From NCBI GenBank assembly GCA_964425005.1, contig CAYRKT010000001.1:77980-141979 (forward strand): DNA of 64,000 nucleotides. Reading direction: 5' to 3'. Below, piece after piece: positions 18,212-63,810 of the stretch; within the stretch, counting starts at the first letter, position 1; the number at the start of each line of letters is the position of its first letter. A program made the translations under genes and the position numbers. This stretch comes from an uncultured Synergistia bacterium (GTDB taxonomy: Bacteria; Synergistota; Synergistia; CAYRKT01). The notes below the pieces were generated by a model. That model made no database searches. It was given only the letters and a program-made list of their open reading frames with translations, and was not told the DNA's origin.

Positions 18212-18217
18212 GTCGAA

Positions 18218-19779: not shown

Positions 19780-19841
19780 ACGCCACCGGGAGCAGACTTC
19801 CCGAACGGAAACGGACAGAGGGCTGACAACCCCAAAAAAGA

Positions 19842-20080: not shown

Positions 20081-21496
20081 TTGCCCTACTCGTCTCGCTA
20101 CGCCGTCGGCGACACCATAGCCGCCATCGCGACGCCCTTCGGCGAGGGCGGGATATCGGTGGTCAAGGTATCCGGCCCCGAGGCGGTGAGGCTCGCCGAG
20201 GGACTGCTCAGATCCCGAAGAAGGCTCTCTGAGGTACCCCCGAGGCACATGTTGCACGCCTGGGCGATCGACCCCTCCTCGGGAGAGCCCCTGGACGAGG
20301 TGCTGGCGGTGAGGTTCGATCCCCCCAGGAGCTACACCGGCGAGGAGGTGGCCGAGATACACTGCCACGGGGGCTGCGCGGTGAGCCAGCGAATCCTGGA
20401 GATCCTCCTCCAGCTGGGGGCCAGGCACGCCTCGCCGGGGGAGTTCACCTTCAGGGCCTTCTTCAACGGAAAGATGGACCTCACCCAGGTCGAGTCGGTC
20501 CTGTCCCTCATAAGGGCGAGGACGGAGGCGGCCCTGAAGAGCGCCGCCAGGAGCTTGGGGGGCGCCGTGAGGAGGAGGGCTGAGTCCGTGAGGGAACGGC
20601 TCTTAAGACTGGCCGCCTGGATCGAGGCCCAGATAGACTACCCTGACGAGGACGTCCCCCAGGCCGAGGTGGAGGCCCTGGCATCTGAGCTGGAGGGGAT
20701 CTGCGAGGATCTAGAGGACCTGCTGGAGAGGATGAGGGCAGGGCAGCTGCTGGGGGAGGGCATAAGGGTGGCCATAGTGGGAAGACCCAACGTTGGGAAA
20801 AGCAGCCTTCTCAACGCCCTGCTCAAGGAGGCGAGGGCCATAGTAACCTCCATACCTGGTACCACCCGGGACATAGTGGAGGGGGTGATATCCCACAAGG
20901 GGATCCCCATAAGGCTGGCCGACACCGCGGGGATAAGGGAGACCATCGACGAGGTGGAGAGCATCGGGGTCCAACGGGCCCTGGCGGCTGCTAGGGAGTC
21001 CGACGTGAACGTCCTGGTCCTGGACGGAAGCGATGACCTCACGGAGGAGGACCTCAGGCTCATGGAGGAGTTCGCCCACAAGCCCATGGTGGTAGTGGTG
21101 AACAAGCTGGATCTACCGAGCAGGATCACCCCAGAAGGGGTCAGGAGGGAGGCCCTCAGGAGGTTAGGTCGAGACCTGAGGGCGGAGGTCCTGGAGATAT
21201 CCGCCCTGCGGGGCACCAACGTGGAGGCCCTGAAGGAGGCCCTGGTGCGCTTCGTCCTGGAGGGCGAAGGAGGGCTCCAGGAGGCCTTGAGCTCGACCCC
21301 CAGACAGATCTCCTGCGTCCTGGACTCGTCCGAGCACCTAAAGGAGGCTAAGCTCGCGCTGGACGAGGGCCTCGGGCTCGAGGTGGTGGCGGAGCTCATC
21401 AGGAGGTCCCTCGAGAAGCTAGACGTCCTCCTGGGCCTCAGCGCGCAGGAGGACGTCATAGAGCAGATATTCTCCAGCTTTTGCGTGGGAAAATAG
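20081..21496 (+). CDS. mnmE: tRNA modification GTPase MnmE (TrmE)
   Basis: N-terminal AIATPFGEGGISVVKVSG, G domain [19 protein letters not shown]-terminal CVGK tetrapeptide; TTG start with GAGGGAG RBS. Confidence 0.9.
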   Translation: MPYSSRYAVGDTIAAIATPFGEGGISVVKVSGPEAVRLAEGLLRSRRRLSEVPPRHMLHAWAIDPSSGEPLDEVLAVRFDPPRSYTGEEVAEIHCHGGCAVSQRILEILLQLGARHASPGEFTFRAFFNGKMDLTQVESVLSLIRARTEAALKSAARSLGGAVRRRAESVRERLLRLAAWIEAQIDYPDEDVPQAEVEALASELEGICEDLEDLLERMRAGQLLGEGIRVAIVGRPNVGKSSLLNALLKEARAIVTSIPGTTRDIVEGVISHKGIPIRLADTAGIRETIDEVESIGVQRALAAARESDVNVLVLDGSDDLTEEDLRLMEEFAHKPMVVVVNKLDLPSRITPEGVRREALRRLGRDLRAEVLEISALRGTNVEALKEALVRFVLEGEGGLQEALSSTPRQISCVLDSSEHLKEAKLALDEGLGLEVVAELIRRSLEKLDVLLGLSAQEDVIEQIFSSFCVGK

Positions 21497-21500
21497 CCGA

Positions 21501-23216
21501 TCACATGCGCCGCGGAGCCGATACCCCCAACAGCCTCAGCCCGTTGGCCAGGACCGTACGGGTGGCCTCGCAGAGGACCAACCGGGCGTCCCTCAGGCGC
21601 TCGTCCCCGCAGCTCAACACAGGGCAGGAGTTGTAGAAGCGATGAAACCTGGAGGCCAGCTCCTGGAGGTAGAAGGCCACTCGATGGGGAGCCAGCTCCC
21701 TGGCGGAACGCTCCACCTCCTCCGGGAACTCGGCCAGATGCCTTATCAGGTCCATCTCCTCCGGCGAGGAGAGGGGGGTTAGATCGGCGGAGGAGGCATC
21801 CGGCATCGAGACCCCCCTCGAGAGGGCCTCTTCCTCCAGGCTGCATATCCTCGCATGGGCGTACTGCACGTAGTACACCGGGTTGTCGGAGGACTGGCTC
21901 TTCGCCAGGTTCAGGTCGAACTCCAGGTGGCTGTCCGATTTCCTCATGACGTAGAAGAACCTCGCAGCGTCCACGCCCACCTCCTCGAAGACCTCCCGCA
22001 GCGTGATGAACTCCCCGGACCTGGTGGACATGGAGACCTGCTTTCCATCCCTCAACAGGGTGACGAACTGGATCAAGACCACCTGGAAGCTCTCCTCAGG
22101 ATAGCCCAGGGCCTTGACAGCCGCCTTCATCCTGGGCACGTAGCCGTGGTGGTCCGCGCCCCATATGTCCACCAGGAGGTTGAAGCCTCGGTCGTACTTG
22201 TTCTTGTGGTAAGCCACGTCGGAGGCGAAGTAGGTGGGCGCTCCGTTGCTCCTCACCAGGACCCTGTCCTTCTCGTCCCCGAAGGCGGTGGACCTAAACC
22301 ACAAGGCCCCGTCCCCCTCGTAGGCGAACCCCTTGCCCTTGAGGTACTCCATGGCCTCGTCGAGGAGCCCCCTCTCGTAGAGGCTCCTCTCGGAGAACCA
22401 CACGTCGAACTCCACCCCGAAGTCCCTGAGGTCCTTGACTATACCCTCCAGGATCCAGTCCTTGGAGAACCTGTAGAAGTCGTCCACCACCCTCTCGACC
22501 TCGTCGCGGCCCTCCTCGCCCCTGGCCAGGGCCTCCTCGAGCCTCCGAAGGTGGAGGTCCCCATCCCTCTCGAGAACCATCCTGGCTACGTCGTACATGT
22601 AGGAGCCCTTGTAGCCGTCCTCCGGCAAGGGGTAGAGCTCAGGACGACCGAGGATCTCCACGTACCTGGCCAGGGCAGAACGCCCGAGCAACCTCATCTG
22701 AAGGCCGGCGTCGTTTATGTAGTACTCCTTGGAGACCTCGTAGCCGGCGAACCTGAGGACGTTGGCCATCACGTCCCCGACCGCTGCCCCTCTGCCGTGG
22801 CCCACGTGCAGCGGCCCAGTGGGATTGGCGCTGACGAACTCGAGGTTGACCCTAATGCCTCTACCCAAGTCCGAGCTGCCGTAACTATCCCCCATCCGAA
22901 CTATGTGGGGGAGCACCGATCTCCAGAAGGCGTCGGCCATCCTGAAGTTGAGGAAGCCGGGCTTTGCCACCTCCACCTCCCTGAAGAGGGAGGGATCGAA
23001 AACCCTGTCCCTTATCCTTGCGGCTATCTCCATCGGACTGGCCCTCAACACCTTGGCGAGCTGCATGGCCAAGGGGCTAGCCACGTCGCCGAACGACTCG
23101 TTGCGAGGGACCTCCACCAAAACGGGAGGGAGAAGCCCCTCGTCCAGACCCCTTTCCCTCAGGAGCTCGAGGGCTACCTCCTTGAGCCTCTCGGAAACCA
23201 TCCTCTGAACCCTCAT
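21501..23216 (-). CDS. argS: Arginyl-tRNA synthetase (start placed at an internal ATG; the maximal ORF reaches 23285 and would overlap secA)
   Basis: Class I HIGH region (ANPTGPLHVGHGRGAAVGD), anticodon-binding C-terminal domain. The chosen start MRVQRMVSERLKEV has a GGGGG RBS. Confidence 0.9.
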   Translation of the reverse strand: MRVQRMVSERLKEVALELLRERGLDEGLLPPVLVEVPRNESFGDVASPLAMQLAKVLRASPMEIAARIRDRVFDPSLFREVEVAKPGFLNFRMADAFWRSVLPHIVRMGDSYGSSDLGRGIRVNLEFVSANPTGPLHVGHGRGAAVGDVMANVLRFAGYEVSKEYYINDAGLQMRLLGRSALARYVEILGRPELYPLPEDGYKGSYMYDVARMVLERDGDLHLRRLEEALARGEEGRDEVERVVDDFYRFSKDWILEGIVKDLRDFGVEFDVWFSERSLYERGLLDEAMEYLKGKGFAYEGDGALWFRSTAFGDEKDRVLVRSNGAPTYFASDVAYHKNKYDRGFNLLVDIWGADHHGYVPRMKAAVKALGYPEESFQVVLIQFVTLLRDGKQVSMSTRSGEFITLREVFEEVGVDAARFFYVMRKSDSHLEFDLNLAKSQSSDNPVYYVQYAHARICSLEEEALSRGVSMPDASSADLTPLSSPEEMDLIRHLAEFPEEVERSARELAPHRVAFYLQELASRFHRFYNSCPVLSCGDERLRDARLVLCEATRTVLANGLRLLGVSAPRRM

Positions 23217-25930: not shown

Positions 25931-25976
25931 CGACCTGGGGTTTCTCTAGAGCTAACGCGGACGAAGAGTCCTACCC

Positions 25977-25985
25977 ATTATAGCA
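25977..25985 (-). promoter_or_regulatory. Extended -10 promoter element (TGcTATAAT) upstream of secA
   Basis: Minus strand reads gctgTGcTATAATgggtagg, about 45 nt upstream of the secA start. Confidence 0.35.
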
Positions 25986-26018
25986 CAGCTCCAGAGCGGT
26001 TATACTATTGACCAGGAG

Positions 26019-27566
26019 GTGAATGGGTTGGGCGTAAAAAGGGCTTTGGTCTCCACCTGGGACAAGAGCGGGCTGGAGGAGCTCGCCTCCTCCTTTCGAG
26101 AGAGGGACGTGGAGGTGATCTCCACAGGAGGGACGGCTAAGGTCCTCCGCGGGATGGGGTGCACGGTGGTGGAGGTCGAGAGCGTCTCGGGCTTCCCAAG
26201 CCTCTTCGGCGGGAGGGTAAAGACCCTCCATCCCGCGGTCATGGGCGCCATCCTCATGAGAAGGGACTCGAAGGAGGACCTGTCGGAGGCCGACGCGCAC
26301 GGAATAAAGCCCGTGGACCTGGTGGTGGTAGATCTCTACCCGTTCGAGGCGGCCTCCGCCTCGGGCTCGCCGCTGGAGGAACTGGTGGAGAAGATAGACG
26401 TGGGGGGCGTGACCCTCATCCGGGCAGCGGCCAAGAACTTCGCCAGCGTGGCGGTGGTGGTGGACAAAGCCGACTACCCGAAGGTGGCCCAGCTCATAAG
26501 GGAGAGAGGAGAGATCCCCCTCGAGGTCCGAAGGGGCCTGGCGGTCAAGGCCTTCAGGAGGAGCTCCTTCTACGACGCCCTGATAGGGTTCGAGCTCGCG
26601 AGGCGCTTCGAGGAGGAGGTCATCCCGTTGTCCGCCGCCGAGATCTCGCTCCCCTTGTCCCTCGTGAGCGCCCTTCGCTACGGCGAGAACCCCCATCAGA
26701 GGGCCTCCCTCTTCTCCTCTCCTCTGAACCCGCCCCTGCGCGTGGAGAAGCTGCAGGGCAAGGAGCTCTCCTACAACAACCTCCTCGACCTGGAGTCCGC
26801 CCTGGTCGGCTGTCATCTGCTGAGGGAGAGGTGCGCCTGCGTTATCATCAAGCACAACCAGCCCTGTGGGATAGCCGTTGGGACCACCCCGAAGGAGGCC
26901 TACGCCAGGGCCGTAGAGGCCGACCCCGTGTCGGCGTTCGGCGGGGTGGTGGGCTTCACCAGAGCGGTGGACGGAGAGACGGCCGAGGAGGTAACTAAAT
27001 CCTTCAAGGAGGCCGTGGTGGCCCCGGACTACTCGAGCGAGGCCCTCTCGATCCTGAGGGGGAGGGAGAGGCTCTCGATCCTGAGGGCGGACCCAAAGGA
27101 CCTGAGGTCCAGGCCCTCCCTCAGGAACACCGTCTTCGGGATCCTCGTGCAGGAGGAGAGGGAGACGCCGATGCCGGCCCTGACCTCCATGAGGTGGGTG
27201 TCCGGCGACCCACAGGGGCTAGACGAGGAGTCGGCGGATGTGGCATGGGTGGCATCGTACCTCCTCAAGAGCAACGCCGTGGCCATCGCCAAGGGGGGCA
27301 GGACGGTGGGACTCTGCGGTGGGCAGCCGAACCGGGTCAGCGCCGTGGCCATAGCCCTGCAGAGGGCGGGCGAACTGGCGAGAGGTTCGGTGATGGTCTC
27401 GGACGGCTTCTTCCCCTTCCCCGACTCCATAGAGCTGGCGGCGGATTCCGGGGTATCCTTCGTGATCCAGCCCGGCGGGTCCGTGAGGGACGAAGAGGTG
27501 ATCGAGGCGGCCAGGGCAAGGGGTGTCGCCATGGCCATCACGGGGATCAGGCTCTTCAGGCACTGA
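26019..27566 (+). CDS. purH: Bifunctional AICAR formyltransferase / IMP cyclohydrolase PurH (true start may be TTG at 26028)
   Basis: MGS-like N-terminus KRALVSTWDKSGLEELA..ISTGGTAKVL and AICARFT domain; 515 aa. The AGGAGG at 26014-26019 is better spaced for the TTG at 26028. Confidence 0.9.
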   Translation: MNGLGVKRALVSTWDKSGLEELASSFRERDVEVISTGGTAKVLRGMGCTVVEVESVSGFPSLFGGRVKTLHPAVMGAILMRRDSKEDLSEADAHGIKPVDLVVVDLYPFEAASASGSPLEELVEKIDVGGVTLIRAAAKNFASVAVVVDKADYPKVAQLIRERGEIPLEVRRGLAVKAFRRSSFYDALIGFELARRFEEEVIPLSAAEISLPLSLVSALRYGENPHQRASLFSSPLNPPLRVEKLQGKELSYNNLLDLESALVGCHLLRERCACVIIKHNQPCGIAVGTTPKEAYARAVEADPVSAFGGVVGFTRAVDGETAEEVTKSFKEAVVAPDYSSEALSILRGRERLSILRADPKDLRSRPSLRNTVFGILVQEERETPMPALTSMRWVSGDPQGLDEESADVAWVASYLLKSNAVAIAKGGRTVGLCGGQPNRVSAVAIALQRAGELARGSVMVSDGFFPFPDSIELAADSGVSFVIQPGGSVRDEEVIEAARARGVAMAITGIRLFRH

Positions 27567-38473: not shown

Positions 38474-38534
38474 CCCTCTTCGACCTTTTCCGCGAGCTCA
38501 CCCAGCCCTTATTTTACCACTAAAGGGAAAACTA

Positions 38535-39320
38535 TCAAGGAGATCCCCCGCCGACCTGCTGGTGCTCCAGGAAGCGATAGGGGCAACAGCGACCGCCCAG
38601 GACGGAGCCCTTCAGGGCCTCGAACGAAAGCTCCTCGAGCCACACCAGGGTGGCGCAGGACCTCCTTATGTCCTCGACCCTGTGGGCGTCGGAGGAGGAG
38701 ACGAACGGATAGGTGGGGTGAAGAGCCCTGAGCCTCTCGTAGAGATCGAGGTCGCAGCGACAGCTGACCTCCAGGGCGCAGGGAAGCCCGGGGGGGACGA
38801 AGCCGAAGACAGCGGTGTAGCTGAGGGACGGCCTGTCCACGTGCGCCATGATCACGAGCGCGTCGAACTCGTCGTGGGCCAGCAGGGCTATCTCGTCGGC
38901 GCCGAGGTCCACCCCGGCCAGGAGGAGCCTCTCCTCGAAGCCCAGCACGTCGTCGTCCTCGTCTATCAGCACCTGGTATCCCAGCAAGTCCGGATCGTTC
39001 CTGGCCGGCGGCAGGGCCCGCCAGACCAACTCCTGGAAGGCCAAGGCAGCCTCGATCGTGCCGAACACGCACAGGACGTGGACGTCCTCGCGGCTTTGAA
39101 CCTCCATGCCGGGGAAGAAGCGGATCCCCGCGCCCCACAAGACCTTCGAGAACGCCGGGCAGTTGGCCGTCGCGTTGTGATCGGAGACCACCAGGACCTC
39201 TATGCCCTCCTCCGCAGCCCTGTTCGCAATAGACTTTGTCCCCATGCGCAGGTCCGCGCATGGGGACAAAACGGAGTGCACGTGAAAATCCACCAGCACG
39301 CCCCTCTCGGGCACCGCCAT
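38535..39320 (-). CDS. PHP-domain metal-dependent phosphoesterase
   Basis: VLVDFHVHSVLSPCAD (PHP motif I), ..VSDHN.., C-terminal ..SSSDAHR..; 12 nt downstream of rpoC. Confidence 0.7.
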   Translation of the reverse strand: MAVPERGVLVDFHVHSVLSPCADLRMGTKSIANRAAEEGIEVLVVSDHNATANCPAFSKVLWGAGIRFFPGMEVQSREDVHVLCVFGTIEAALAFQELVWRALPPARNDPDLLGYQVLIDEDDDVLGFEERLLLAGVDLGADEIALLAHDEFDALVIMAHVDRPSLSYTAVFGFVPPGLPCALEVSCRCDLDLYERLRALHPTYPFVSSSDAHRVEDIRRSCATLVWLEELSFEALKGSVLGGRCCPYRFLEHQQVGGGSP

Positions 39321-39332
39321 CCGACGAACCCC

Positions 39333-42300
39333 CTAGGAGGCCGCCATCTCCTCCTGCCTCGGCCTGACCTTCAAGCGCCTGTAGGCGTGAACCCCCGTTC
39401 CGGCGGGTATGAGGCTGCCTATTATCACGTTCTCCTTGAGGCCAACCAGCGGATCGTACTGGGAGCAGACCGCAGCCCTGCAGAGGACCTGAGCCGTCTG
39501 CTGGAAGCTGGCCGCCGAAAGCCAGCTGTCCGTGCTCAAGGCGGCCTTGGTGATGCCGTGGACGAAGGGCTTCCACTGGGGCTTCTTCCAGAAACGCCTC
39601 ACGAAGGTGATGCGCTGGACCAGCATCCTCATCTCCACGCCCGAGGTCAGCCCCCTAACCACTATCTCGGAGGGCTCGGCCTCCACTATCCTGTCGAGGA
39701 TCTCGTGGTTTATCTCCTGGCCGGCCAGCGCCAGGACCTCGCCGGAGGAGGAGACCACGTCCTGCAGGAGGACCCTTCCGTAGAGCAAACCGCTCAGCGC
39801 CTGCTCGAGTATCATCTGCCTGGTGAGGGGTTTACCCCCTACCTCCATGGCCGCTATTCGCCCCTCCACGAACTCCTTGACCACCCTGCCGTCCACCATC
39901 ATGCCCAGGTCCTTGACCTCGTTCCCGTCCCTGTCTATGACCCTTCCGAGCTCCTTGCCCCAGAAGTTGTTCACCAAGAACTTCTCCAGCACGTCGCCCT
40001 TGTTGACTATCTCCACGCTCTTCCAGACCCTTATGAGGGGGACCTCCCTGTCGGCCAGGAGCTTTAGGACCTCCGGGGTCAGCAGCTTGTCCCTGGAGGC
40101 CAGCAAGGTCCCGCCCAGGACCACGTCCTCGGCCAGGTAGGCCTTGCCAGCCAGCTCCTCCATGACCTTGAGGTGCTTGACCTTTATTATCCTGACCTCC
40201 TCCTTCAGGGCCTTGAGCAGGTTGAGCACGTTGGAGGGGTTGATCAGGGTGCCGGGCTTCATCTCGAAGTCGGGTCCGCTCAGCCCATCCATCAGCTGAA
40301 GCCCAAGCACCTCCTTGCGGAAGGGCGACTCGCCCACTATGACCCTCACGTAGCCCTCCTCGTCCTCCAACAGGAGCTCCGACAGCCCCTCCAGGGAGGA
40401 GACCAGCCTCTCGGCCATCTCGGCGCTCTTCACGGTCTGCCCCGCCAGCTCGTGGCCCACCACCTGGCGCCCTTCCTCGTCGTACAGGGCGACTATCCTC
40501 CTGCCCTGGAGCACCTTGAGGTTGTCGGCCTTGAAGCGCTCGTTCTCGGCATCCAGCCGCTGAAGCTCCTCCTGGAGCTCGTCCACCCAGACCATGTCCC
40601 CCGCGACGAACCTGCTGTCGCCCTCGTCCACTATCCTGACCCTGTTGGTCGGGGCGACCTTCCTGAGGATCACCTCCACGTGCTTGTCGTTTATCTTGAC
40701 GCCCTGCGACCTGTAGACCTCCTGGATCCCATCCAGCAGGTACCTCTGCACCGCCTCCAGGCCGCAGACCTCCAGGAGCTGCTGCGGGTCCACGTAGCCC
40801 TCGGATATCTGCATCCCCTTGTGGACCTCGTCTCCCTCCTCCACGAACAAACCCACCCCTTTGGAGACGACGTAGGTCTTCTCCACCGAGGGATCGGCCC
40901 TGTCCTGGACCACCACCTTTCGCTTGTCCTCCAGCTCCTTTATCTCCTTGACTACGCCGTCCACCTCGGATATCACGGCCACCTTCTTGGGCCTCCTCAC
41001 CTCGAAGAGCTGCTCTATCCTGGGTAGGCCCTGGGTTATGTCCTCGCCCAGTATTCGCACCCCTCCGGTATGGAAGGTCCTCATCGTGAGCTGAGTGCCA
41101 GGCTCACCTATCGATTGAGCCGCCACCACGCCCACAGCCTCGCCTATGCTCACCAGCCTCCTCCTGGCCAGGTCCATCCCGTAGCACTTCTGGCATACCC
41201 CCACCTTGGACCTGCACTTCATGGGGCTCCTTATGAGGACCCGTTTGACCCCGGCGGCCTCTATGGCCGAAGCCGCCTCCCTGCTCACCATCTCGTCCCT
41301 CCTGACCAGGACCTCGCCGGTGCGCGGGTCCACCACGTCCTCCAGCACGAAACGTCCAGCTATCCGCTCGGAGAGGGGTATCACCACGCGCCCTTCCTTC
41401 TCGAAGGCGCTTACCCAGATGCCCTCGTCGGTGCCGCAGTCGGATTGGGATACTATTATGTCCTGGGCCACGTCCACCAGTCTTCTGGTGAGGTATCCAG
41501 ACTTCGAGGTCCTCAAAGCCGTGTCCGCGAGCCCCTTCCTGGCGCCATGGGTGGACAGGAAGTACTCGAGCATGTTGAGCCCCTCCCTGAAGTTGGAGAG
41601 GATCGGGTAGTCTATTATCTTGCCGGAGGGGTCGGCCATAAGTCCACGGATGCCAGCCATCTGGGAGACCTGCGTTATGTTGCCCCTGGCGCCAGATCCC
41701 ACCATCCTCCTAAGGGGGTTTATGGTCTCCATGGACTCCAAAACCCTCTCGCCCACCTTCCTGGCCGTGTTGGACCAGAGGATCTCCTTCTGCTGGAGGT
41801 ACTCCTCCTCGGAGATGAGCCCCTTCTTGAAGCTCTCCTCCAGCTTGCCGTTCTCCTCCATCGCCCGATCCACTATCTCCTTCTTGTCGGGCGGTATGAC
41901 CACGTCGGTTATGCCGAGGCTCAACCCGGACTGGGTGGCCCACCTGAAGCCCAGGTACTTCATCTTGTCGAGTATCTCCACCAGCTCGACGGTGGTGACC
42001 AGGTCGTAGGCCTTGTCCAGGAGCTCGCTGAGATCCCCCTTGGAGACCTCCTTGTTGAAAAACCTGAGCTCCCTGGGGAGGATGCTGTTGAACAGCACCC
42101 TTCCTGGGGTGGTCTCTATCATCTGGTCCCCGTAGCGCATCTTTATCCTGGCACCCACGTGGACCAAGCCGTGGTCCAGGGCTATGAGCACGTCCTCCTC
42201 GTCGGCGAAGACCTTGCCCTCCCCCTTGACCCCCTTCTGCTCCATGGTCAGGTAGTGAAGCCCTATGACCATGTCCTGCGTCGGCGTCACTATGGGCGAG

Positions 42301-44276
42301 CCGTTGGCCGGGGATAGCAGGTTGTTAGCGGAGAGCATCAAAACCCTGCACTCCGTCTGGGCCTCTATGGACAGGGGAACGTGCACGGCCATCTGATCCC
42401 CGTCGAAGTCGGCGTTGTAGGCCACGCACACCAGGGGCGGTATCTGTATGGCCTTGCCCTCCACCAGGACCGGCTCGAAGGCCTGGATGCTGAGCCGATG
42501 GAGCGTGGGGGCGCGGTTCAAGAGCACCGGGTGGTCCTTTATGACCTCCTCGAGGACCTCCCAGACCTCCTCCCTGTCCCTCTCCAGCATCCTCTTGGCG
42601 GCCTTTATGTTCTGGGCGTAGCCCTTCTCCACGAGCTTGTTTATGATGAAGGGCCTAAAGAGCTCCAAGGCCATCATCTTGGGCAGACCGCACTGGTAGT
42701 GCTTTAGGTGGGGCCCTATGACTATGACGCTCCTGCCGGAGTAGTCGACCCTCTTGCCCAGGAGGTTCTGCCTGAACCTGCCCTTCTTGCCCTTCAGGAG
42801 ATCGCTCAGGCTCTTGAGGGGCCTGTTCGCGGAGCCCAGAACAGCCTTGCCCCTCCTGCCGTTCTCTATGAGGGCGTCCACCGCCTCCTGGAGCATGCGC
42901 TTCTCGTTCCTTATCACGATCTCCGGCGCCCTCATGTCGATGAGCTTCCTCAACCGGTTGTTCCGGTTTATGACCCTCCTGTAGAGGTCGTTTATGTCGG
43001 AGACCGCGAACCTACCTCCGTCCAGCTGGACCATGGGCCTCAAGTCCGGCGGGATCACGGGCAGGACCTCCAGGATCATCCACTCCGGCCTGCTCTCGGA
43101 CCTCCGAAACTCCTCCACCACCTGGAGCCTCTTTATGAGCCTGCGACGCCTCTGGCCCATCGACTCGGCTATGGCCTCCCTTAGGGAGTCGGCTATCTCC
43201 TCCAGGTCGAGGCTCATGAGGAGCTTCTTGACCGCCTCGGCCCCAGCTCCGGCCTCAAACTCCTTGTCGAACATCTTGCAGAGCCTGCTCTCGCTCTCGA
43301 GTATTATCTCCCCCTGCTTGAAGGGGGACTTGGAGGGGTTTATCACTATGTAGCAGGGCTCCTCCACTATCTTCGTCTCGGGCTGAACCTGGAACTTGCC
43401 CATGTACTTGTTGTAGTAGAGGTGGTACTCGCTGGAGGAGATGATGCTCCCCACCGAGAAAGGCAACCTGGCCACCGCGGTGACCAGATAGGCCTCCTCC
43501 GAGCCGACCCTGGCGGGTTCCACCACCAGCTCAACCCCCTCCGAAGTCGCCCTCTCCACCTCGGAGCGGGGCAGGATCTGTCCCACTGCGTAGCTGGGAG
43601 AGCTGGACGATACCACGGCGAAGGCGGGCTCAACCACCAGGCCCTCGTGCTCGCCCCTGGTGACCTCCAGCATCTTAGAGCGGGGGATCAAGCTGCCCTC
43701 CTTGACGGGGGGTTCCTCCACGGAGACGACCCGATAGGCCTCCTCCGCGCTGAACCGGTGGTCGTAGTGCTCGAAGATCCTCTTCTGCGACTCGGTGACC
43801 ACATCTCCCCTCTTGACCAGGTCGCCCCTCTTCCCGGTCATCACGACCTTGTAGGCGTTCTCCCTTCGCCTGTTGGAGGCGAAGTATATGACCTTCTCCA
43901 ACTCCTTGGCCTGGACGTCCAGGAGTATGCTGAGCCTGCTGGGTATGCCCCGCAGGAACCACAGATGGACCACGGGAGCGGCGAGCTCTATGTGCCCCAT
44001 CCTCTCCCTCCGGACCCTGCTGTCGGTGAGCTCGACGCCGCACCTGTCGCAGGACATCCCCTTGAACCTCATACCCGTCTTCTTGTACTTGCCGCAGTAG
44101 CACTCGTAGCTCTTGGTGGGGCCGAATATGCGCTCGCAGAACAGACCATCCCTCTCGGGCTTGAGGGTCCTGTAGTTGATGGTCTCGGCCTTCTTCACCT
44201 CGCCGCTCGATATCTGCCTGATCCTCTCAGGGCTCGCCAGCTTTATCTTGACGCCCCTTATGGTCTTCTTGGCCAT
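39333..44276 (-). CDS. rpoC: DNA-directed RNA polymerase beta-prime subunit, long form with two lineage-specific insertions
   Basis: Zn finger [20 protein letters not shown] catalytic motif, trigger-loop region TFHTGG, C-terminal LSAASFQQT. About 160 extra residues after the YF of region A (aa about 170-340) and about 315 extra residues between [10 protein letters not shown] and [10 protein letters not shown] (aa about 1240-1560) relative to E. coli. Confidence 0.95.
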
Positions 44277-44301: not shown

Positions 44302-47871
<3,570 letters not shown>

Positions 47872-53345: not shown

Positions 53346-53443
53346 TGGCGGAGGCGTGTGGGAATCGAACCCACCGGGAGCCGCCGAGGCAACCCCCCAC
53401 TGGATTTGAAGTCCAGGACACCCACCAGGACATATCCGCCTCC
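53346..53443 (-). tRNA. selC: tRNA-Sec (selenocysteine tRNA), anticodon TCA, about 98 nt with long variable arm, CCA encoded
   Basis: Anticodon arm CTGGA-CTTCAAA-TCCAG is identical to E. coli selC; long extra arm TGGGGGGTTGCCTCGGCGGCTCCC; T arm GTGGG-TTCGATT-CCCAC; discriminator G + CCA; acceptor GGAGGCG(G)/(A)CGCCTCC with a G:A at the 8th pair. Confidence 0.75.
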
Positions 53444-57376: not shown

Positions 57377-58714
57377 CTATCTCCTGTTCCTCCATTCCAC
57401 CCTCAGAGGAGTCCCTCTAAGCTCCAGAGCCTCCCTGAGCCTTCTCTCAACCATCCTCTCGAAAGAGCTATCCACCAGGTCAGATTGGTTGACGAAGAAG
57501 ACGAAGCGAGGTGGGCGAGTCCCCGCCTGGACGCAGTAGTACACGTTCAAGTGCCTACCCCTTCCGTCCGAGGGCATTCTCTCAAAGGCCAAAATTTCCT
57601 TAACCAGGGCGTTGAGCCTGGCAGTGGGAACCCTCCTGGACCAGTTATCGTAGGCCTCCAGTACGTAGCTAGGGATGCGGAGCACGTTCCTCTTGGTCCT
57701 GGCGGAGACGAAGAGCAGGGGAGCCCAGCTCACAAACCCCATCTCCCTCTCGATGAACTTGACGAAGCGCCCCCCTACGAGCTCGTCCTTGGGGACCAAG
57801 TCCCACTTGTTGAGGATCAAAACCAGGGCCTTGCCCCTACTTTTGACCTCCTCGGCGAGCTTCTTGTCCTGATCCGTGGCGGGCTCGGTGGCGTCCATGA
57901 TCAGAAGGGCCACGTCCGCCCTATCGAGGGCCCTCAGGGCCCGCACCACCGAGTAGTACTCCACGTCGTCCCTTATCCTGGACCTGCGCCTCACGCCCGC
58001 GGTGTCCAGGAAACGGTAGCGTCGACCCTCCACCTCTAAGATGCTGTCCACCACGTCCCTCGTCGTGCCAGGCACTTCGCTCACTATGCTTCGCTCGTCC
58101 CCCAACAAGGCGTTGAAAAGCGATGACTTTCCCACGTTGGGCCTGCCCAGTATGGCCACGGAGATCTCGCTCTCCGCCTCAGCCCTATCGCGAGCCTCCT
58201 GGGGCAAAAGGGGCAGGACCACCTCCATGAGCTCAGCCACGCCCAGGCCGTGTTCCGCTGATACGCCCACCACCCTCTCGAAGCCGAGCTCGTACCCGCA
58301 ATAGACGCTGGCGCTGTCCTTAGGGGAGTCTATCTTGTTGACCACCACCACCACTTCTTTGCCGTGCCTGCGCAGGAGCTCCCCCACCTCTTTGTCCACG
58401 TGGTCGACGCCCCTCTTGCCGTCCACCACCAGCAGCACCACGTCGGCCTCCTTGATGGAGAGCATCACCTGCCTTCGCACGGCCTCGTCGAAGGGGTTGT
58501 CGTCCCCGAGGAAGAGACCGCCCGTGTCCACCAGGTAGAAGCTCTTGCCCTCCCAGCTGACCTCCCCGTACAACCTGTCCCTCGTCACGCCAGGGACGTC
58601 GTCCGTTATGGCGAGCCTCCTTCCGATCAACCTGTTGAAGAGCGTCGACTTGCCCACGTTCGGCTTACCCACTATCGTCACAACGGCCAACCACACCACC
58701 CCCGCAAGAGACAA
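57377..58714 (-). CDS. der: Ribosome biogenesis GTPase Der (EngA), tandem G domains + KH-like domain
   Basis: [18 protein letters not shown] and [19 protein letters not shown]-loops, two NKxD motifs; 445 aa. Confidence 0.9.
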
Positions 58715-58718
58715 CCCC

Positions 58719-60587
58719 TCAATCCCTCAGGACCTCGATGGACCTGACCGCGAGGGACCTCCCACCAGGGCGGCGAAGCGCGAAGAAACCAGCCATCCAG
58801 CCTCTCACGCCCTCGTGATCCGAGGATCTGAGGCAGACCTCCAGATCCTCCCCCTCCTCGCTGACCCCAATGAGCTCCGCGAAGGACGGCAAGGACGACG
58901 TGAAGCCCTCCCCTCCTCCCCTAAGGGCGAGCCGAAGCCTATACAGGTTAACGAAAGGAGGATAGCCAAAAATCCGCCTCCCTTCAAGCTCCACGCTCCA
59001 CATGTTTTGAGGTCCTCCTTTTAAGGCGTTGACAAACCAGGAACGGGGGTTCCTGGTCTGCACGTAGACCTCCCTCTCCTCGCCGGGCCTGAGCCCCCTG
59101 TAGCCCGACTGCAGGATGGCCCCGTAGAGCCTGGGGACCACGTCGTAGTCCGGCCTGGATAGCTCGAGCTCCAGGTCGAGCCAGGCGCAAAGGGGGACCC
59201 TCGCGGACTCGAGCACGTCGAGGGACCCACGACTGCCCAGGATCAAGCCGCCCCCTCTCGCCCACCCCAACACCTCGGCGAGCGCCCTCCTGGAGAGATC
59301 CCCCCTCAGCACCGCCGTCTTCCCCTCGCCGAACAACCCACCGGCCACCTCGGCGTAGGCCTCAAGCCCTGGGGAGAGATAGCGCCTAAAGGGGGACCCA
59401 CACCTGGGGCACCTCTCGCTCGGATCGCCGGAGACGCCGCACCACCTGCACCTCTGTCCGCCGGACCTCGACAGGGAAAGGGGCCGCGAGCACCTGGGAC
59501 AGCTCATGGTCGTCCCGCAATCCTCACAGACCGCCAAGGCGGCGTAACCCTTCCTGTCCAGCAACCAGAGGACGATTCCCCCCGAGTCCAGCACCTTCCT
59601 CGTAGCGCTCACGAGGGCTGGGGAGATCCTGGTTCCCCCCACGGGGCCAAGATCCCTGGCCCTCCTCAGGTCCACCACGTGCAGGCTCACCCCGTCGCGC
59701 GACCTGAAGGGCACCCTCTCCCTCCAGAGGAGCTCGCCCGAGGCGCCAGACCTCAGGGCCCTGTAGGAACGGCTCGACGGCATGTCGCCTCCGAGGACCA
59801 GCTTGAAGCCCTCGACCTTCGACCTCATGTAGGCCACAGTCCTGGCGTTTATCGTCCCGTGCCTCTGGGATATCAGATACGGGGAGGCCTCTTGCTCCAC
59901 CACCATCAGCCCCAAGCGCGGCGAGGGCACGAAGACGGAGGAGCGCGCCCCCACCACCACCTTCCCTCCCCGGCTCAGCCTGAGCTCCAGCCAAAGGGAG
60001 AGCGCCCTCCTGGAGGAAAAACCCCTCCAGAGGTGAAGCTCAAGGCCCTTCAAGCGCTCTCTGGCGAAGGAGAAAAATCTCTCCGCCGAGGAGACCTCGG
60101 GGAAGACGAGCACCGCGTCCTCGCCCCTCTCGGCCGCACCTTCAGCCTCCGCGCAGTAGAAATCCCACCTCTCCCACTCCTTGAAGGAGTAGAAGAGAAA
60201 AAGCTTTCCCTCCCCACCTTCCGACCTGGCCGGCAGGGGCTCCCGGATCGGCTCCAGCCTGGGAGGACACATCTGGGCCAACACCAGACCTCTGGAGGTG
60301 AGGAAGAGCTTGCCTATCTCGTCCGACAGCGCCCAAAGCCCGTCGGTGAGGAAGGGATAGAGGTCCACGGGACACAGATCGTCCCGCAGCGCGCTGAGGT
60401 CCGGCAACCCCCGCGGGTGCTCGCCGTCCAGGGGGCGACAGCTCACCACCCATCCCCTTCTCCTCGACCTCCCAAGCGGCAGGTCCACCCTCACCCCCGC
60501 CGCCAGGGGCGCGCGGGAGAGATAAAAAAGGTTGTCCCACCAAGGGGCGGGACAACAGGCCTCGACCAGGTAGAGTTCCTCCGACAT
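58719..60587 (-). CDS. priA: Primosomal protein N' (PriA) homologue with degenerate helicase motifs (probable pseudohelicase)
   Basis: PriA-like N-terminal 3'-DNA-binding region, VVVGARSSVFVP (cf. IVIGTRSALFTP) and Cys-rich zinc region CEDCGTTMSCPRCSRPLSL..CRWCG are retained. Walker A is SEGGEGKL (vs GVTGSGKT), DEEH box is VEQEA, motif III is GGDMP (vs GSATP), motif VI is QSGYRGLR (vs QVAGRAGR). Confidence 0.75.
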   Translation of the reverse strand: MSEELYLVEACCPAPWWDNLFYLSRAPLAAGVRVDLPLGRSRRRGWVVSCRPLDGEHPRGLPDLSALRDDLCPVDLYPFLTDGLWALSDEIGKLFLTSRGLVLAQMCPPRLEPIREPLPARSEGGEGKLFLFYSFKEWERWDFYCAEAEGAAERGEDAVLVFPEVSSAERFFSFARERLKGLELHLWRGFSSRRALSLWLELRLSRGGKVVVGARSSVFVPSPRLGLMVVEQEASPYLISQRHGTINARTVAYMRSKVEGFKLVLGGDMPSSRSYRALRSGASGELLWRERVPFRSRDGVSLHVVDLRRARDLGPVGGTRISPALVSATRKVLDSGGIVLWLLDRKGYAALAVCEDCGTTMSCPRCSRPLSLSRSGGQRCRWCGVSGDPSERCPRCGSPFRRYLSPGLEAYAEVAGGLFGEGKTAVLRGDLSRRALAEVLGWARGGGLILGSRGSLDVLESARVPLCAWLDLELELSRPDYDVVPRLYGAILQSGYRGLRPGEEREVYVQTRNPRSWFVNALKGGPQNMWSVELEGRRIFGYPPFVNLYRLRLALRGGGEGFTSSLPSFAELIGVSEEGEDLEVCLRSSDHEGVRGWMAGFFALRRPGGRSLAVRSIEVLRD

Positions 60588-60603
60588 CCCTAGGACCCAG
60601 GGC

Positions 60604-61818
60604 CTATCCCAACAGGAGGCTCGCCTCCTCGAGGATCAACCTGGCCGCCTCTCCCTTCGCCAAGGTCCCTAACTCGACCGGCTCCTTGCCGGAGGAGAAG
60701 TATATCCTCCCCCGTATCAGCTCCGACGAAAAACCAGCGTCCCCCGAGGAGACGTCGTTGGCCACGATCATGTCCAGCCCCTTCTTGCGAAGCTTTCGAA
60801 GGACCTCCTCCTCCTTCACCTCCCACTCGGCGGCGAAGCCGACCAGCACCTGATCTGGCCTCCTGTGGGCCCCCAGATAGGCCGCTATGTCGGGGTTCTG
60901 TACCAGCTCCAAAGCGAGGGTCTCCGCGCCCTCCCTCTTCAGCTTACCCCTCGCTGGGGAGGAAACCCTGTAGTCTGAGACGGCCGCCGCCTTGATCACC
61001 ACGTCGAAATCCCTGTAGAGGGAGGAGACCACCTCGAACATCTGAAGCGCGCTCTCGACCCTGATCGTGTGGACGTAGGAAGGGGGTCTGACCTCCGTGG
61101 GCCCCAGGACCAGCGTGACCTCAGCGCCCATGTAGGCCGCGAACCTGGCGAGCTCAACCCCCATCGAGCCGCTAGAGGGGTTGGATATGAACCTCACCGA
61201 GTCTATGAACTCCCTCGTGGGCCCGCCCGTGACCAAGACCTTCCTCCCCTGGAGCCTCTTGTCGGGATAGGAGGCGCGGCATATCTCGTCGACCACCACG
61301 TCCACCGGCGGGAGCTTGCCCTTGCCGTACTCGTCGCAAGCCAAAAGCCCCTCGTCGGGCTCCACCACCTCGTAGCCGTAGCCCCTGCAGAGCTCCAGGT
61401 TGGCCTTAGTGGCGGGGTGCTCCAGCATCTGGGCGTTCATGGCCGGAAAGATCAAGACCTTCCCCCTGTAGGCCAGGGCAAGAGCCCCGTAGAAGGTGGA
61501 CGCATCCCCGTGGGCCAGCCTGGCGATCACCGAGGCGGTGGCTGGGACGAAGGCCACCAGATCCGCCCACCTGGCCAGCCTGATGTGGGGTATACGATGA
61601 CCCCAGTCCAGTCCCAGGAACTCCTCCTCCAGAGTGCAGCGGTCCTCGATGAGGGCGGACACGACCAGGGGGGGGACGAAGGCGGAGGCCCCCTCGGTGA
61701 GATGGGCCTTCACTTGAAAGCCCATCTTCCTGAGGGACCTGCCCACGTCGCAGACCCTGTAGGCCGATATGCCGCCGCCTATCACCAGGAGGACCTTCAC
61801 GCCGCTCTGCCAGGACAA
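60604..61818 (-). CDS. coaBC: Bifunctional phosphopantothenoylcysteine decarboxylase / phosphopantothenate-cysteine ligase
   Basis: N-terminal flavoprotein KVLLVIGGGISAYRV and C-terminal DFP/CoaB domain; 404 aa. Confidence 0.9.
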   Translation of the reverse strand: MSWQSGVKVLLVIGGGISAYRVCDVGRSLRKMGFQVKAHLTEGASAFVPPLVVSALIEDRCTLEEEFLGLDWGHRIPHIRLARWADLVAFVPATASVIARLAHGDASTFYGALALAYRGKVLIFPAMNAQMLEHPATKANLELCRGYGYEVVEPDEGLLACDEYGKGKLPPVDVVVDEICRASYPDKRLQGRKVLVTGGPTREFIDSVRFISNPSSGSMGVELARFAAYMGAEVTLVLGPTEVRPPSYVHTIRVESALQMFEVVSSLYRDFDVVIKAAAVSDYRVSSPARGKLKREGAETLALELVQNPDIAAYLGAHRRPDQVLVGFAAEWEVKEEEVLRKLRKKGLDMIVANDVSSGDAGFSSELIRGRIYFSSGKEPVELGTLAKGEAARLILEEASLLLG

Positions 61819-61821
61819 CCC

Positions 61822-62064
61822 TCATTCCCCCACGTCGCCGGAGGCTATCTTGAGGGACGACTCGTCCAGGAAGATCAGCTCCAGCTGTCCCGCCGCGATC
61901 TCGTCCAGCGCCCGCCTTATGTAGCCCTTCTTGCCCGACCTGTCGAGGAAGACCTCCTTGCTCTCGAAGAGCTGCTTCGCCCTCTTGAAGGCAGCCACGG
62001 TCAGGACGTATATGTTGGGGGCCTTCCCCTCCCTTATTATCCTCTCCACGTCAGGGTATATCAA
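61822..62064 (-). CDS. rpoZ: RNA polymerase omega subunit
   Basis: NIYVLTVAAFKRAKQL resembles the omega core (..lvAarRArql..); conserved gmk-rpoZ-coaBC context; 80 aa. Confidence 0.7.
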   Translation of the reverse strand: MIYPDVERIIREGKAPNIYVLTVAAFKRAKQLFESKEVFLDRSGKKGYIRRALDEIAAGQLELIFLDESSLKIASGDVGE

Positions 62065-62079
62065 AGCCCGTTCACCTCC

Positions 62080-62661
62080 TCATCTCCTGTAGGACTCTAT
62101 TATCCTCTTCACCTCGTCTGCGGCCCTCTCCAGGTCGTCGTTGACCACCGCGTGGTCGTACCAGGCGACCTGCCTCATCTCCACCTCGCTGCTCTCCATG
62201 CGCAACCTGAAGCTCTCGCTCGTCTCGGTGCCTCTGCCAGCAAGCCTCCTCTCGAGCGCCTCCCTGGAGGGCGGCATTATGAATATCAATATGGCCTCGG
62301 GGAAGACCTCCTTCACCTGCCTCGCCCCCTGGACGTCTATCTCCAGGATCACGTCCTTGCCCTCGGAGAGCGCCCTCTCCACGTCCTCCCTGAGGGTGCC
62401 GTACATGTTCCCGTGGACGGAAGCCCACTCCAGGAAATCCCCCCTCCTCACCCTCTCCTCGAACTCCTCCCTGGACACGAAGCGGTAGTCCACGCCCTCC
62501 TCCTCTCCCTCCCTGGGGGACCTGGTCGTGCAGGAGACGGAGTAGACCAGCCCATCCAGGAGCTGGAACAACCTCTTGCGGATGCTGCTCTTCCCAGCGC
62601 CTGAGGGACCTGAGATCACTATAAGGTTTCCAGGGGCTTTAGGTCTCCTAGAGTCCTCCAA
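62080..62661 (-). CDS. gmk: Guanylate kinase
   Basis: LIVISGPSGAGKSSI P-loop and guanylate kinase core; 193 aa. Confidence 0.9.
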   Translation of the reverse strand: MEDSRRPKAPGNLIVISGPSGAGKSSIRKRLFQLLDGLVYSVSCTTRSPREGEEEGVDYRFVSREEFEERVRRGDFLEWASVHGNMYGTLREDVERALSEGKDVILEIDVQGARQVKEVFPEAILIFIMPPSREALERRLAGRGTETSESFRLRMESSEVEMRQVAWYDHAVVNDDLERAADEVKRIIESYRR

Positions 62662-62665
62662 AGGG

Positions 62666-62920
62666 CTAATCCCCCTCGCTTAGCCCGGCTATCCTCTGAG
62701 CGATGGTCTCGGGGTTTATGGCCGACAGTATCACGTGGTCGCTGTCGGTGACTATTATAGCTCTGGTCTTCCTGCCCTGGGTGGCGTCTATAAGCTTACC
62801 CCTCTCCCTCGCCTCTTCCTTGAGCCTCCTTATGGGCGCCGAGTCCGGCGCCACCACCGCCACGACCCTGTCGGCTACGACCATGTTGCCAAACCCCACG
62901 TGAACGAGCCTGAGATCCAT
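62666..62920 (-). CDS. remA: DUF370 / RemA-family small DNA-binding protein
   Basis: [76 protein letters not shown] closely matches B. subtilis RemA ([66 protein letters not shown]). The six-frame ORF to 63655 is a spurious fusion. Confidence 0.8.
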
Positions 62921-62925
62921 GAGCA

Positions 62926-63810
62926 TCACTCCACGTTCTGAAGTTGCTCCCTCAAGCTTTCTATGAGGTTCCTCATCTCCACCGTCAGGTGCCTGATCCT
63001 GGCGTCCGGAACCTTGGAAGCCACGGTGTTGGCCTCCCTCTGCATCTCCTGCGCCAGGAAGTCGAGCCTCTTCCCCTTGGCCGACTCCTTCGCGTCCTCC
63101 AGGATCAGGTAGAACTGGTCCAGGTGGCTCTTGAGCCTGCCCAGCTCCTCCTCTATGTCCCACCGATCCACCAGGATGGCGGCCTCCATGTGAAGCCGCA
63201 TCTGGTCCATCGACAGCTCCGAAGCCAGGGACGACAGCTTCTCGAGCAACGAGGAAAAGGCGCTTCCCCTTACCTCCTGCCACCTCTCCTCGGTCTGACG
63301 CAAGTTGGACTCCATCGAGCGCAGTATGCCCCTGATAAGTCCCTCCAGGTTTTCGCCCTCCCTCCGCCTCATGGAAAGGAGGTCCTCGTAGGCCCTCTCC
63401 AGGAGCTCTAGGCAAAGCCGCGATAGCTCCTCCCGATCTATGTCCAACCCAACCTCGACCTCCACCACCCCCGGCAGGAGCAACAGGTCCTCCAACCTCA
63501 ACTCCTGCAGGAGCTTGAGCTCCCCCCTGAGCTTCTCCACCTCGAAGAAGTAGCGAAGCAACACCTCCCTGTTGACCCTGTAGACGGCCGAGGGATCCAC
63601 CAAGCGGGAGGACAGGTTCACCGAGAACTTCCCGCGCCTGAGCTTCCTCTCGCACCAGAGCCTGACGTCCCTCTCCACCTCAGCTAGCTCCTTGGAGACC
63701 CTCAGGGTGTACTCCTTGAACCTGTGGTTGTAGCTGGATATCTCGGCCTCGAGCCTGCCCTGGGCCAGCGAGAGCTCCGCCCTTCCGTAACCCGTCATGC
63801 TGAATATCAA
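62926..63810 (-). CDS. yicC: YicC-family stress-induced protein
   Basis: [31 protein letters not shown].. N-terminus and C-terminal DUF1732-like region; 294 aa. Confidence 0.85.

Follow-up and report, generated by a model that had tools for sequence, protein, structure and literature searches.

A divergent PriA with degenerate helicase motifs from an uncultured Synergistia bacterium, a predicted pseudohelicase of a type found across the Synergistota

Can the replication restart protein PriA work without a motor of its own? The question is raised by a gene for a divergent PriA in a stretch of 64,000 nucleotides from an uncultured Synergistia bacterium (GenBank assembly GCA_964425005.1, contig CAYRKT010000001.1, positions 77,980 to 141,979), which we will call the window. 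PriA has been described as unique among restart proteins in its conservation across bacterial phyla (PMC5778457), and the field's review describes its helicase activity as conserved "except in Deinococcus"; we found no literature linking PriA with the Synergistetes. The initial annotation of this gene, made from the letters alone, had claimed a PriA homologue with degenerate ATPase and helicase motifs, comparable to the pseudohelicase of Deinococcus radiodurans, and a multiple alignment, a structure prediction and more than 90 relatives now support that comparison. To judge by its motifs, the protein (window PriA) very probably has no helicase activity. We propose, by analogy with D. radiodurans PriA, that it would act as an ATP-independent fork-recognition adaptor which, with DciA, recruits the replicative helicase DnaB (probability about 0.7).

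Membership of the PriA family, as initially claimed, is borne out by a phmmer match of residues 141-547 to PriA chains 4nl4/6dgd (Klebsiella, E. coli) in the PDB (E = 2e-35) and by the NCBIfam priA model TIGR00595 (E = 1.8e-50; its 172 bits are below the equivalog cutoff of 230 bits); the actinobacterial NCBIfam PriA models also match, at E = 1e-8 to 1e-28. A Pfam scan of window PriA returns only hints below threshold, of zinc ribbons and of the 3'-DNA-binding domain (3'BD; PF17764, 16.4 bits, E 0.008, under the 22.7 cutoff, compared with 38-52 bits in relatives from the Synergistota clade described below). The DEAD, Helicase_C, PriA_C and winged-helix families, all four of which are detected in E. 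coli PriA, have no Pfam match in window PriA.

The motifs were scored in an alignment of window PriA with E. coli PriA (from NC_000913) and other canonical PriAs, which shows that the main helicase motifs are degenerate: there is no glycine-rich P-loop, no Walker lysine or threonine, no motif II aspartate or histidine and no SAT. All three glycines of motif I are gone, K230 of E. coli is replaced by R140 and T231 by W141. Motif II has changed from DEEH to EQEA at residues 231-234 (D320 to E231, E321 to Q232 and H323 to A234), motif III from SAT to GDM at residues 267-269 and motif V from GTQMLAKG to GSRGSLDV at residues 451-458. Motif VI is partly kept, as Q493, R497 and R500 are present and both glycines are gone, while motif IV (LLDRKGYA, 342-349) and the GARS block are near-canonical. 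The peptide strings cited in the initial annotation are all found in the protein (SEGGEGKL at 122-129, VVVGARSSVFVP at 210-221, VEQEA at 230-234, GGDMP at 266-270 and QSGYRGLR at 493-500), and the alignment agrees with its reading of VEQEA as a broken DExH box, of GGDMP as a broken motif III and of VVVGARSSVFVP as a retained block, which is a canonical PriA signature. The claim that every helicase signature is broken holds for motifs I, II and III; it goes too far for motif Ia, which keeps its PE, and for motif VI, where the glycines are lost as claimed but the glutamine and the two arginines are not.

The Walker A assignment was misplaced. SEGGEGKL lies ahead of strand beta1 (128-133 in the predicted structure) and its lysine is not kept in P0002, an 81%-identical relative that has GGEGTV here; the aligned equivalent of the P-loop is SFKEWERW at 134-141, directly after beta1. 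In the model the segment behind that strand turns helical from residue 137, and the phosphate-binding loop is therefore largely gone. A six-frame scan of priA with 300 nucleotides on each side contains neither a DExH nor a QxxGRxGR motif, and its only G4xGK[ST] strings are GKPNVGKS, from the downstream der GTPase gene, and GLFGEGKT, in the PriA frame itself. Neither an intact GxGK[ST] nor a DE[ED]H thus stands elsewhere in the right structural position, and no other frame encodes a Walker A, DExH or motif VI that a frameshift could restore. GLFGEGKT was considered as a displaced P-loop and rejected, because it sits in lobe 2, runs from helix to strand (the reverse of P-loop topology), aligns to a variable 'FPxxR' stretch of canonical PriAs and is not conserved: it is specific to this species, being GEDKA in P0002 and absent from every other relative. 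Annotation based on regular expressions could nevertheless take this string for a P-loop.

These observations bear on the idea that window PriA is still a nucleotide-dependent protein, binding ATP or another nucleotide and perhaps hydrolysing it slowly through R140, the retained motif VI arginines or GLFGEGKT. The invariance of R140 in the clade, the survival of Q493, R497 and R500, and a perfect GxxGxGKT string, of a type that arises in just 1.4% of shuffles of the protein, would fit such a cryptic activity, as would proposals, cited in the review, that E. coli PriA has a weak second site for nucleotide (PMC5778457). We nevertheless consider it very unlikely, since no P-loop glycine is left and most of the loop is helical in the model, since the K230R substitution by itself is enough to kill the E. 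coli ATPase (PMC5778457), since the motif II aspartate and histidine, SAT and the motif V glutamine are all replaced, and since GLFGEGKT has the wrong topology at a hypervariable position and is found neither in the 81%-identical relative nor in other clade members.

The overall architecture, in contrast with the motifs, is like that of canonical PriA (E. coli, K. pneumoniae; 4nl4, 6dgd, 8fak) in fold and domain order. The AlphaFold2 model, built with 63 sequences, is confident (predicted local distance difference test score, pLDDT, 88; predicted template-modelling score, pTM, 0.90) and alternates strands and helices through residues 128-342 and 404-545 in the manner of two RecA-like superfamily 2 lobes. 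Foldseek against the PDB places PriA first (8fak, 6dcr, 6dgd, 4nl4; template-modelling (TM) scores 0.72-0.76), 6dcr being an E. coli protein with the winged helix deleted; the next family, Mfd, reaches a TM score of only ~0.34 and is followed by DEAD-box and Brr2 helicases.

The initial annotation had the N-terminal DNA-binding region retained, which proves right for the 3'BD and wrong for the winged-helix domain. In E. coli PriA the pocket for the 3' end is formed by D17, Y18, G37 and K61, as named in the 2018 review (PMC5778457), and the alignment gives Y22, G39 and R68 as the retained counterparts of Y18, G37 and K61; the model also matches full-length PriA. The winged helix, which would fill ~100 residues from the 3'BD to lobe 1, is missing from the alignment and from the Pfam scan, where PF21213 matches E. 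coli PriA and not window PriA. This domain is not universal, as it is also absent from canonical, motif-intact PriAs of 650-680 residues with Walker A near residue 150-170 (P0134, P0137, P0141). The zinc region, an insertion in lobe 2 that was described initially as having four cysteines, has eight in four CxxC pairs (354/357, 363/366, 380/383 and 393/396), all eight invariant in a 63-sequence PriA alignment. The C-terminal domain (CTD) has no match to PriA_C (PF18074) and is modelled at 547-621 as a small domain of the order strand-strand-strand-helix-strand; canonical PriAs have a first helix and a GPxPAP..RGRYR hairpin here, both of which are missing. Residues S696/R697/V698/R699, which bind the SSB tail in Klebsiella PriA, are not conserved in window PriA, but neither are they among canonical PriAs of other phyla, and so nothing can be concluded from their loss. 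Further features shared with canonical PriA are the Tyr/Gly/Lys-Arg pocket of the 3'BD, GARSxxFxP, the LxxRxGYA motif IV, the four CxxC pairs, a C-terminal PPF and the gmk-rpoZ-coaBC-priA neighbourhood; the differences are the absence of functional motifs I, II, III and V and of the winged helix, the shorter CTD and a total length of 622 rather than ~730 residues.

Is the gene intact and under selection? The ratio of non-synonymous to synonymous substitution rates (dN/dS) of priA is 0.19 against an 81%-identical homologue (L044) and 0.17 against a 99% homologue (L045), and the window priA is under purifying selection. The corresponding values are 0.09 (L044) for coaBC, which has no amino-acid differences from L045 (dN = 0), and 0.08 (L044) and 0.04 (L045) for der. 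One might suspect that the gene is a pseudogene in decay, or that faulty assembly or a frameshift merely gives it the look of a degenerate PriA, since the protein scores under the NCBIfam and Pfam cutoffs and long antisense open reading frames (ORFs) overlap the gene. This explanation is effectively refuted: the frame is open and full-length in every relative, the dN/dS of 0.17-0.19 and the confident fold speak against it, no motif can be recovered in other frames, and antisense ORFs commonly arise in DNA with 64% G+C. The exact protein is also present in NCBI, JGI, ENA and several Logan assemblies, which excludes a sequencing artefact. The overlapping ORFs themselves (93-304 amino acids, in other frames or antisense within 58545-60593, among them one of 304 amino acids at 59679-60593 on the forward strand) are rich in arginine, proline and glycine, as is typical of antisense frames at high G+C, and offer no evidence of overlapping genes.

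How far does the loss extend? The window organism, a species not included among GTDB's representatives, belongs to a deep-branching lineage of Synergistota, because the best named matches of its RpoB are all from this phylum, at 64-68% identity (Thermanaerovibrio, Aminobacterium, Aminithiophilus, Cloacibacillus, Aminivibrio, Thermovirgaceae), with one further relative at 74%. Window PriA as a single query had no match among the GTDB species genomes; a scan of these genomes with a clade profile returned 41 Synergistota loci in 41 species (Synergistaceae, Aminobacteriaceae, Cloacibacillus, Aminivibrio, Caccocola). GK[ST], DExH and QxxGRxGR are lacking in all 41 orthologues, whose motifs follow a pattern of their own: xxxxxxR[WFY] for motif I, [DE][DEQ]E[SAN] for II, G[RT]x for III, GTR..L for V and WESxWRG for VI. 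Arginine at the K230 position is invariant in them, and occurs in 44/44 sequences of the clade. Among 1.84 billion representative proteins searched exhaustively with a HMMER profile, ~51 clusters are of this Synergistota type, scoring from 862 down to ~290 bits, with ordinary PriAs at 278 bits or less; GK[ST] at motif I, DExH and motif VI are lacking in every one of these clusters. In neighbour-joining (NJ) trees, built on Kimura distances between divergent sequences, the window protein, P0002 and 41 clade representatives form an exclusive clade in 40/40 bootstraps, and within it the window protein and P0002 are sister to the rest in 34/40. Across all these loci the order yicC-remA-gmk-rpoZ-coaBC-priA-der is identical, in the window and in the 40 Synergistota loci with long enough flanks, as it is in L044/L045; B. 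subtilis has the matching order gmk-rpoZ-coaBC-priA. From its relatives, context and modelled fold, the window gene is a divergent, vertically inherited priA of a Synergistota bacterium.

The Synergistota-type PriA can be recognised by PxPWW near the N-terminus, R-[WFY] in place of the Walker K-T, WLLDRKGYA at motif IV, the lack of a winged helix, a length of ~600 residues and a position between coaBC and der. Window PriA has these hallmarks (PAPWW at 13-17, R140-W141 and WLLDRKGYA at 341-349). Motif IV was one of the search patterns for the GTDB loci, so its constancy there is partly a matter of ascertainment, although it is conserved independently in the column analysis below. The window protein also departs from the rest of the clade, with EQEA versus DEES at motif II, GDM versus GRx at motif III (most of the clade has an arginine after the motif III glycine and window PriA does not), QSGYRGLR versus WESxWRG at motif VI, and a different GARS block, where the canonical consensus is VVVGARSAxFxP and other Synergistota have GGPGAVFAP. 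It thus keeps the GARS block and the motif VI Q/R/R that the rest have lost, and is without the motif II aspartate that the rest keep, a mixture which suggests that the P-loop was lost in an ancestor and that divergence then went on in steps. To judge from the alignments, motor loss is shared by all sampled Synergistota and is ancestral to the phylum, new residues having then been fixed in the former ATP cleft.

Some members carry misleading names. N-terminally truncated Synergistota-type PriAs of 427-463 amino acids (P0221, P0228 and P0229, of the P0072 cluster from Aminivibrio/Aminobacteriaceae) are named 'prephenate dehydrogenase' in NCBI, and full-length members of the P0072 cluster have either no name or that of primosomal protein N'. 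The dehydrogenase label has probably spread as a misannotation because the family scores under the PriA model cutoffs. In Thermanaerovibrio acidaminovorans, priA was not found within 10 kb of rpoB, where the gene context differs.

The pattern of constraint was examined as column conservation (1 minus normalised entropy) in 44 sequences of the Synergistota clade and 112 canonical PriAs. The clade matches canonical PriA in the 3'BD (0.50 and 0.47), the zinc region (0.52 and 0.49) and the CTD (0.40 and 0.38), and is lower only in the two lobes (0.50 versus 0.62 in lobe 1, and 0.54 versus 0.60 in the second part of lobe 2). At former catalytic positions the clade has acquired new, nearly invariant residues (R140, G267, D344, R453, S494, G498 and R505). 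Maintenance has therefore been kept up in the modules for DNA recognition and zinc, and the ATP cleft has been remodelled, which is not the picture expected of random decay.

The same residues could be read differently, as signs of a neofunctionalised relic without any role in restart, which binds DNA or protein for some other purpose while a second canonical PriA or another system restarts replication. Fixation of clade-specific residues at the catalytic sites would agree with this, as would the absence of a winged helix and the deletion of part of the CTD. So would the rate of evolution: priA is the fastest-evolving gene of the block (57377-63810 in the window; loci L003-L042), with ~30% identity to the window across the phylum, compared with 45-75% for its neighbours overall (remA ~70%, gmk 48-60%, der 49-58%, coaBC 42-51%), and the window covers only 64 kb of the genome, on a contig of 158 kb. 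We regard such a relic as improbable, however. The elements for fork recognition, namely the 3'BD pocket and the eight-cysteine region, show the same degree of conservation as in canonical PriAs, the ancestral position of priA is kept in every sampled genome, and a scan of all frames of the 64-kb window meets no canonical PriA signature. Furthermore, the motor-dead PriA of D. radiodurans still binds forks and DnaB (PMC4504706), and no other restart protein is described as having PriA's conservation across phyla (PMC5778457).

The closest functional precedents are indeed PriAs without a motor. The PriA of D. radiodurans is active neither as an ATPase nor as a helicase, yet binds single-stranded DNA (ssDNA; dissociation constant ~215 nM), forks (~109 nM) and DnaB (PMC4504706). 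Arginine in place of the Walker lysine is known from the PriAs of Deinococcus-Thermus and from the K230R allele of E. coli (Lopper et al. 2015, PMC4504706). K230R abolishes ATPase as well as helicase and translocase activity in E. coli PriA, and the priA300 strain that carries it still restarts replication via the PriA-PriB route (PMC5778457). Like window PriA with its R140, the Deinococcus-Thermus pseudohelicases have non-consensus Walker A and B motifs with lysine changed to arginine, each is the apparent sole priA in an ancestral context (on the window side, within the 64 kb seen), and the hosts on both sides have DciA and not DnaC/DnaI (PMC5109545). By analogy, window PriA would be expected to behave as D. 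radiodurans PriA does, binding forks and ssDNA and contacting DnaB with no ATPase or helicase activity. The paper on Deinococcus-Thermus PriA describes motifs I and II, and by that description window PriA is set apart by a wider loss, which takes in the whole glycine-rich loop and motifs III and V, and by the absence of the winged helix; motif VI is also replaced in most Synergistota, beyond the losses described there (PMC4504706). The phylum differs as well, and window PriA clusters only with Synergistota sequences in the NJ tree. The matches of a profile made from 23 aligned Synergistota sequences were nearly those of the single sequence, with no Deinococcus, Thermus or Thermotoga PriA among them. 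As for priA300, it resembles window PriA in the arginine at the Walker lysine, and it shows that primosome assembly and restart by one pathway can do without the motor (PMC5778457); it differs in being a single laboratory substitution in an otherwise intact helicase, dependent on PriB and DnaT, which are not known beyond a subset of Gram-negatives, whereas the Synergistota cleft is wholly remodelled.

These comparisons suggest the following mechanism. Window PriA would neither hydrolyse ATP nor unwind DNA, to go by the K230R allele and D. radiodurans PriA. At a D-loop or a fork that has been abandoned, the 3'BD pocket (Y22/G39/R68) would recognise the 3' end of the leading strand, and the dead lobes, together with a mobile zinc region, would bind the parental duplex and lagging-strand ssDNA. 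Recent cryo-electron microscopy work describes how the zinc region of PriA swings to encircle lagging-strand ssDNA, and how a duplex lagging arm must be unwound first (PMC13594977). The action of window PriA would accordingly be limited to forks with a pre-existing lagging-strand gap, or would follow another enzyme that makes one, because the protein could not itself expose lagging-strand ssDNA. The complex would then recruit DnaB, with DciA in place of DnaC/DnaI; Synergistetes carry dciA, which occurs only in genomes without dnaC/dnaI (PMC5109545). This last recruitment step, for which D. radiodurans PriA is again the model, we hold with less assurance than the loss of the helicase, as somewhat the better bet. 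Among the ORFs of the 64-kb window that were examined for partners, DnaB, DnaD, DnaI, DciA, PriB, SSB and a second PriA are absent; the housekeeping genes met in the same scan include ValS, ArgS, SecA, IF-2, Obg, NusA, TruB and RpoB/C.

Several points weigh against the adaptor proposal. The fourth residue of the 3'-end pocket, D17 in E. coli, is replaced by F21. The deleted CTD hairpin adjoins the site where the SSB tail binds in Klebsiella PriA, so that SSB-mediated targeting to forks may differ. E233 of motif II survives along with Q493/R497/R500 of motif VI, and these residues may allow some contact with a nucleotide. That the dN/dS of priA is about double the value for its neighbours points to somewhat relaxed constraint. 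The inactivity of Synergistota PriA is itself predicted from sequence, and a second canonical priA or another restart system may lie beyond the 64-kb window and make the protein redundant.

Is the loss peculiar to the Synergistota? Of 207 aligned PriA sequences, in a sample biased toward the query, 82 are motif-less, and the motor of PriA seems to have been lost in several phyla. One could go further and view the motor-less PriA as a recurrent, phylum-wide state, in Synergistota and at least some Actinomycetota, Omnitrophota and Patescibacteria, with the new set of cleft residues (Walker Arg, motif III Gly, GTR, WESxWRG) reflecting a new constraint, for example lobes locked independently of nucleotide or another ligand or partner. 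In that case the lysine-to-arginine change shared with Deinococcus-Thermus might even stem from a single ancient loss in an ancestor common to these lineages. We offer this extension tentatively and consider it rather doubtful as a whole.

The individual cases are diverse. Motif-less PriAs are found in Candidatus Omnitrophota (P0171, P0212), and PriAs without GK[ST], DExH and motif VI in Actinomycetota (P0049-P0065 and locus L043). A metagenome-assembled genome of Candidatus Moranbacteria (P0051) is listed here since PF17764 is the only Pfam domain recorded for its protein, whose motifs were not aligned. Further motif-less homologues of 580-700 amino acids outside the Synergistota clade are P0125, P0130, P0136, P0144-P0146, P0158, P0167, P0183, P0207 and P0218. 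The one comment met in the literature on actinobacterial or mycobacterial PriA motifs calls the actinobacterial orthologue "smaller and very divergent" (Rocha et al. 2005, PMC1193525). These short actinobacterial PriAs (PRK14873 models; PF27106+PF17764) are like window PriA in their length of ~580-700 residues and in lacking GK[ST], DExH and motif VI, and the Egibacteraceae locus L043, with gmk and coaBC upstream of priA, has partly the same neighbourhood; they are unlike it in forming a separate NJ clade and in their motif II residues, for example WDDG or LDEH.

The phenomenon itself has its precedent in the Deinococcus pseudohelicase, and what is new is the phylum-wide loss in Synergistota and its probable recurrence. 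Synergistota are bacteria of the gut, the mouth and anaerobic digesters. They would be the second, and a previously unreported, phylum with a PriA that lacks the ATPase site, and together with the motif-less PriAs of Omnitrophota, Actinomycetota and, putatively, a Moranbacteria genome they would make ATP-independent restart a general evolutionary solution and not a curiosity. The case sharpens the question posed in the review, of whether PriA alone can recruit the replicative helicase without PriB/DnaT or DnaD/DnaB/DnaI. A minimal PriA from DciA-type bacteria, consisting of the 3'BD, dead lobes, zinc region and small CTD, could be a handy system for the essential functions of PriA. There is a practical side too: annotation pipelines miss Synergistota-type priA because it scores below the NCBIfam and Pfam thresholds, and since the gene is missed or misnamed, genome surveys may wrongly call priA absent.

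The features of the gene and its neighbours are collected in the table.

Table. Predicted features of the window priA and the adjacent genes (window coordinates; residues refer to window PriA)
Feature	Coordinates	Strand	Residues	Basis
priA orthologue, predicted pseudohelicase, 622 aa	58719..60587	-		ORF, PriA homology, dN/dS, model fold
3'BD, predicted	60258..60587	-	1-110	PF17764, alignment
SEGGEGKL, linker ahead of strand beta1, not P-loop position	60201..60224	-	122-129	alignments
degenerate motif I SFKEWERW, versus E. coli GVTGSGKT	60165..60188	-	134-141	alignments
motif Ia remnant VLVFPEV, PE kept	60093..60113	-	159-165	alignment
GARS block VVVGARSSVFVP, canonical PriA signature kept	59925..59960	-	210-221	alignments
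degenerate motif II VVEQEA, versus VIDEEH	59886..59903	-	229-234	alignments
degenerate motif III LGGDMPSS, versus LGSATPAL	59772..59795	-	265-272	alignments
motif IV region WLLDRKGYA, versus E. coli FLNRRGYA; clade-wide signature	59541..59567	-	341-349	alignment
cysteine-rich region, four CxxC pairs, two predicted Zn sites	59379..59531	-	353-403	alignments, Pfam zinc-ribbon hints
GLFGEGKT, chance Walker-A-like string	59316..59339	-	417-424	pattern scan, shuffles
degenerate motif V LGSRGSLDV, versus IGTQMLAKG	59214..59240	-	450-458	alignments
motif VI QSGYRGLR, versus QVAGRAGR	59088..59111	-	493-500	alignments
shortened C-terminal domain	58722..58952	-	546-622	Pfam, model, alignment
der (engA) GTPase, immediately downstream of priA	57377..58714	-		
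coaBC, immediately upstream of priA, marks positional orthology	60604..61818	-		
rpoZ	61822..62064	-		
gmk	62080..62661	-		
remA	62666..62929	-		
yicC	62926..63810	-		

A few observations concern other parts of the window. A tRNA-Sec gene lies at 53346-53443 on the reverse strand, between tsaE and a gene for a flavodiiron protein (ARAGORN; Rfam RF01852, 77.9 bits), and the organism therefore probably uses selenocysteine. Adjoining rpoB (44302-47871, reverse strand) is an ORF of the size of rpoC (39333-44276, reverse strand), assigned as such from size and position; its 1647 amino acids compare with 1651 for T. acidaminovorans RpoC, and the extra length has the look of an insertion that is specific to the lineage and typical of Synergistota. 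Four ORFs of 462, 200, 432 and 777 amino acids at 13960-19606 (reverse strand) suggest, by sizes and order only, a tig-clpP-clpX-lon cluster, which is followed by genes for tRNA-Lys and tRNA-Leu at 19694-19917. Finally, ORFs of 294-423 amino acids without a Pfam match are found at 3190-4461, 20638-21846, 25971-26855 and 38509-39576, all on the reverse strand. Some of them overlap with other long frames of the opposite strand and could be spurious at 60-65% G+C; the one at 3190-4461, which has no NCBIfam match either, has no obvious competing ORF and may be a genuine gene.

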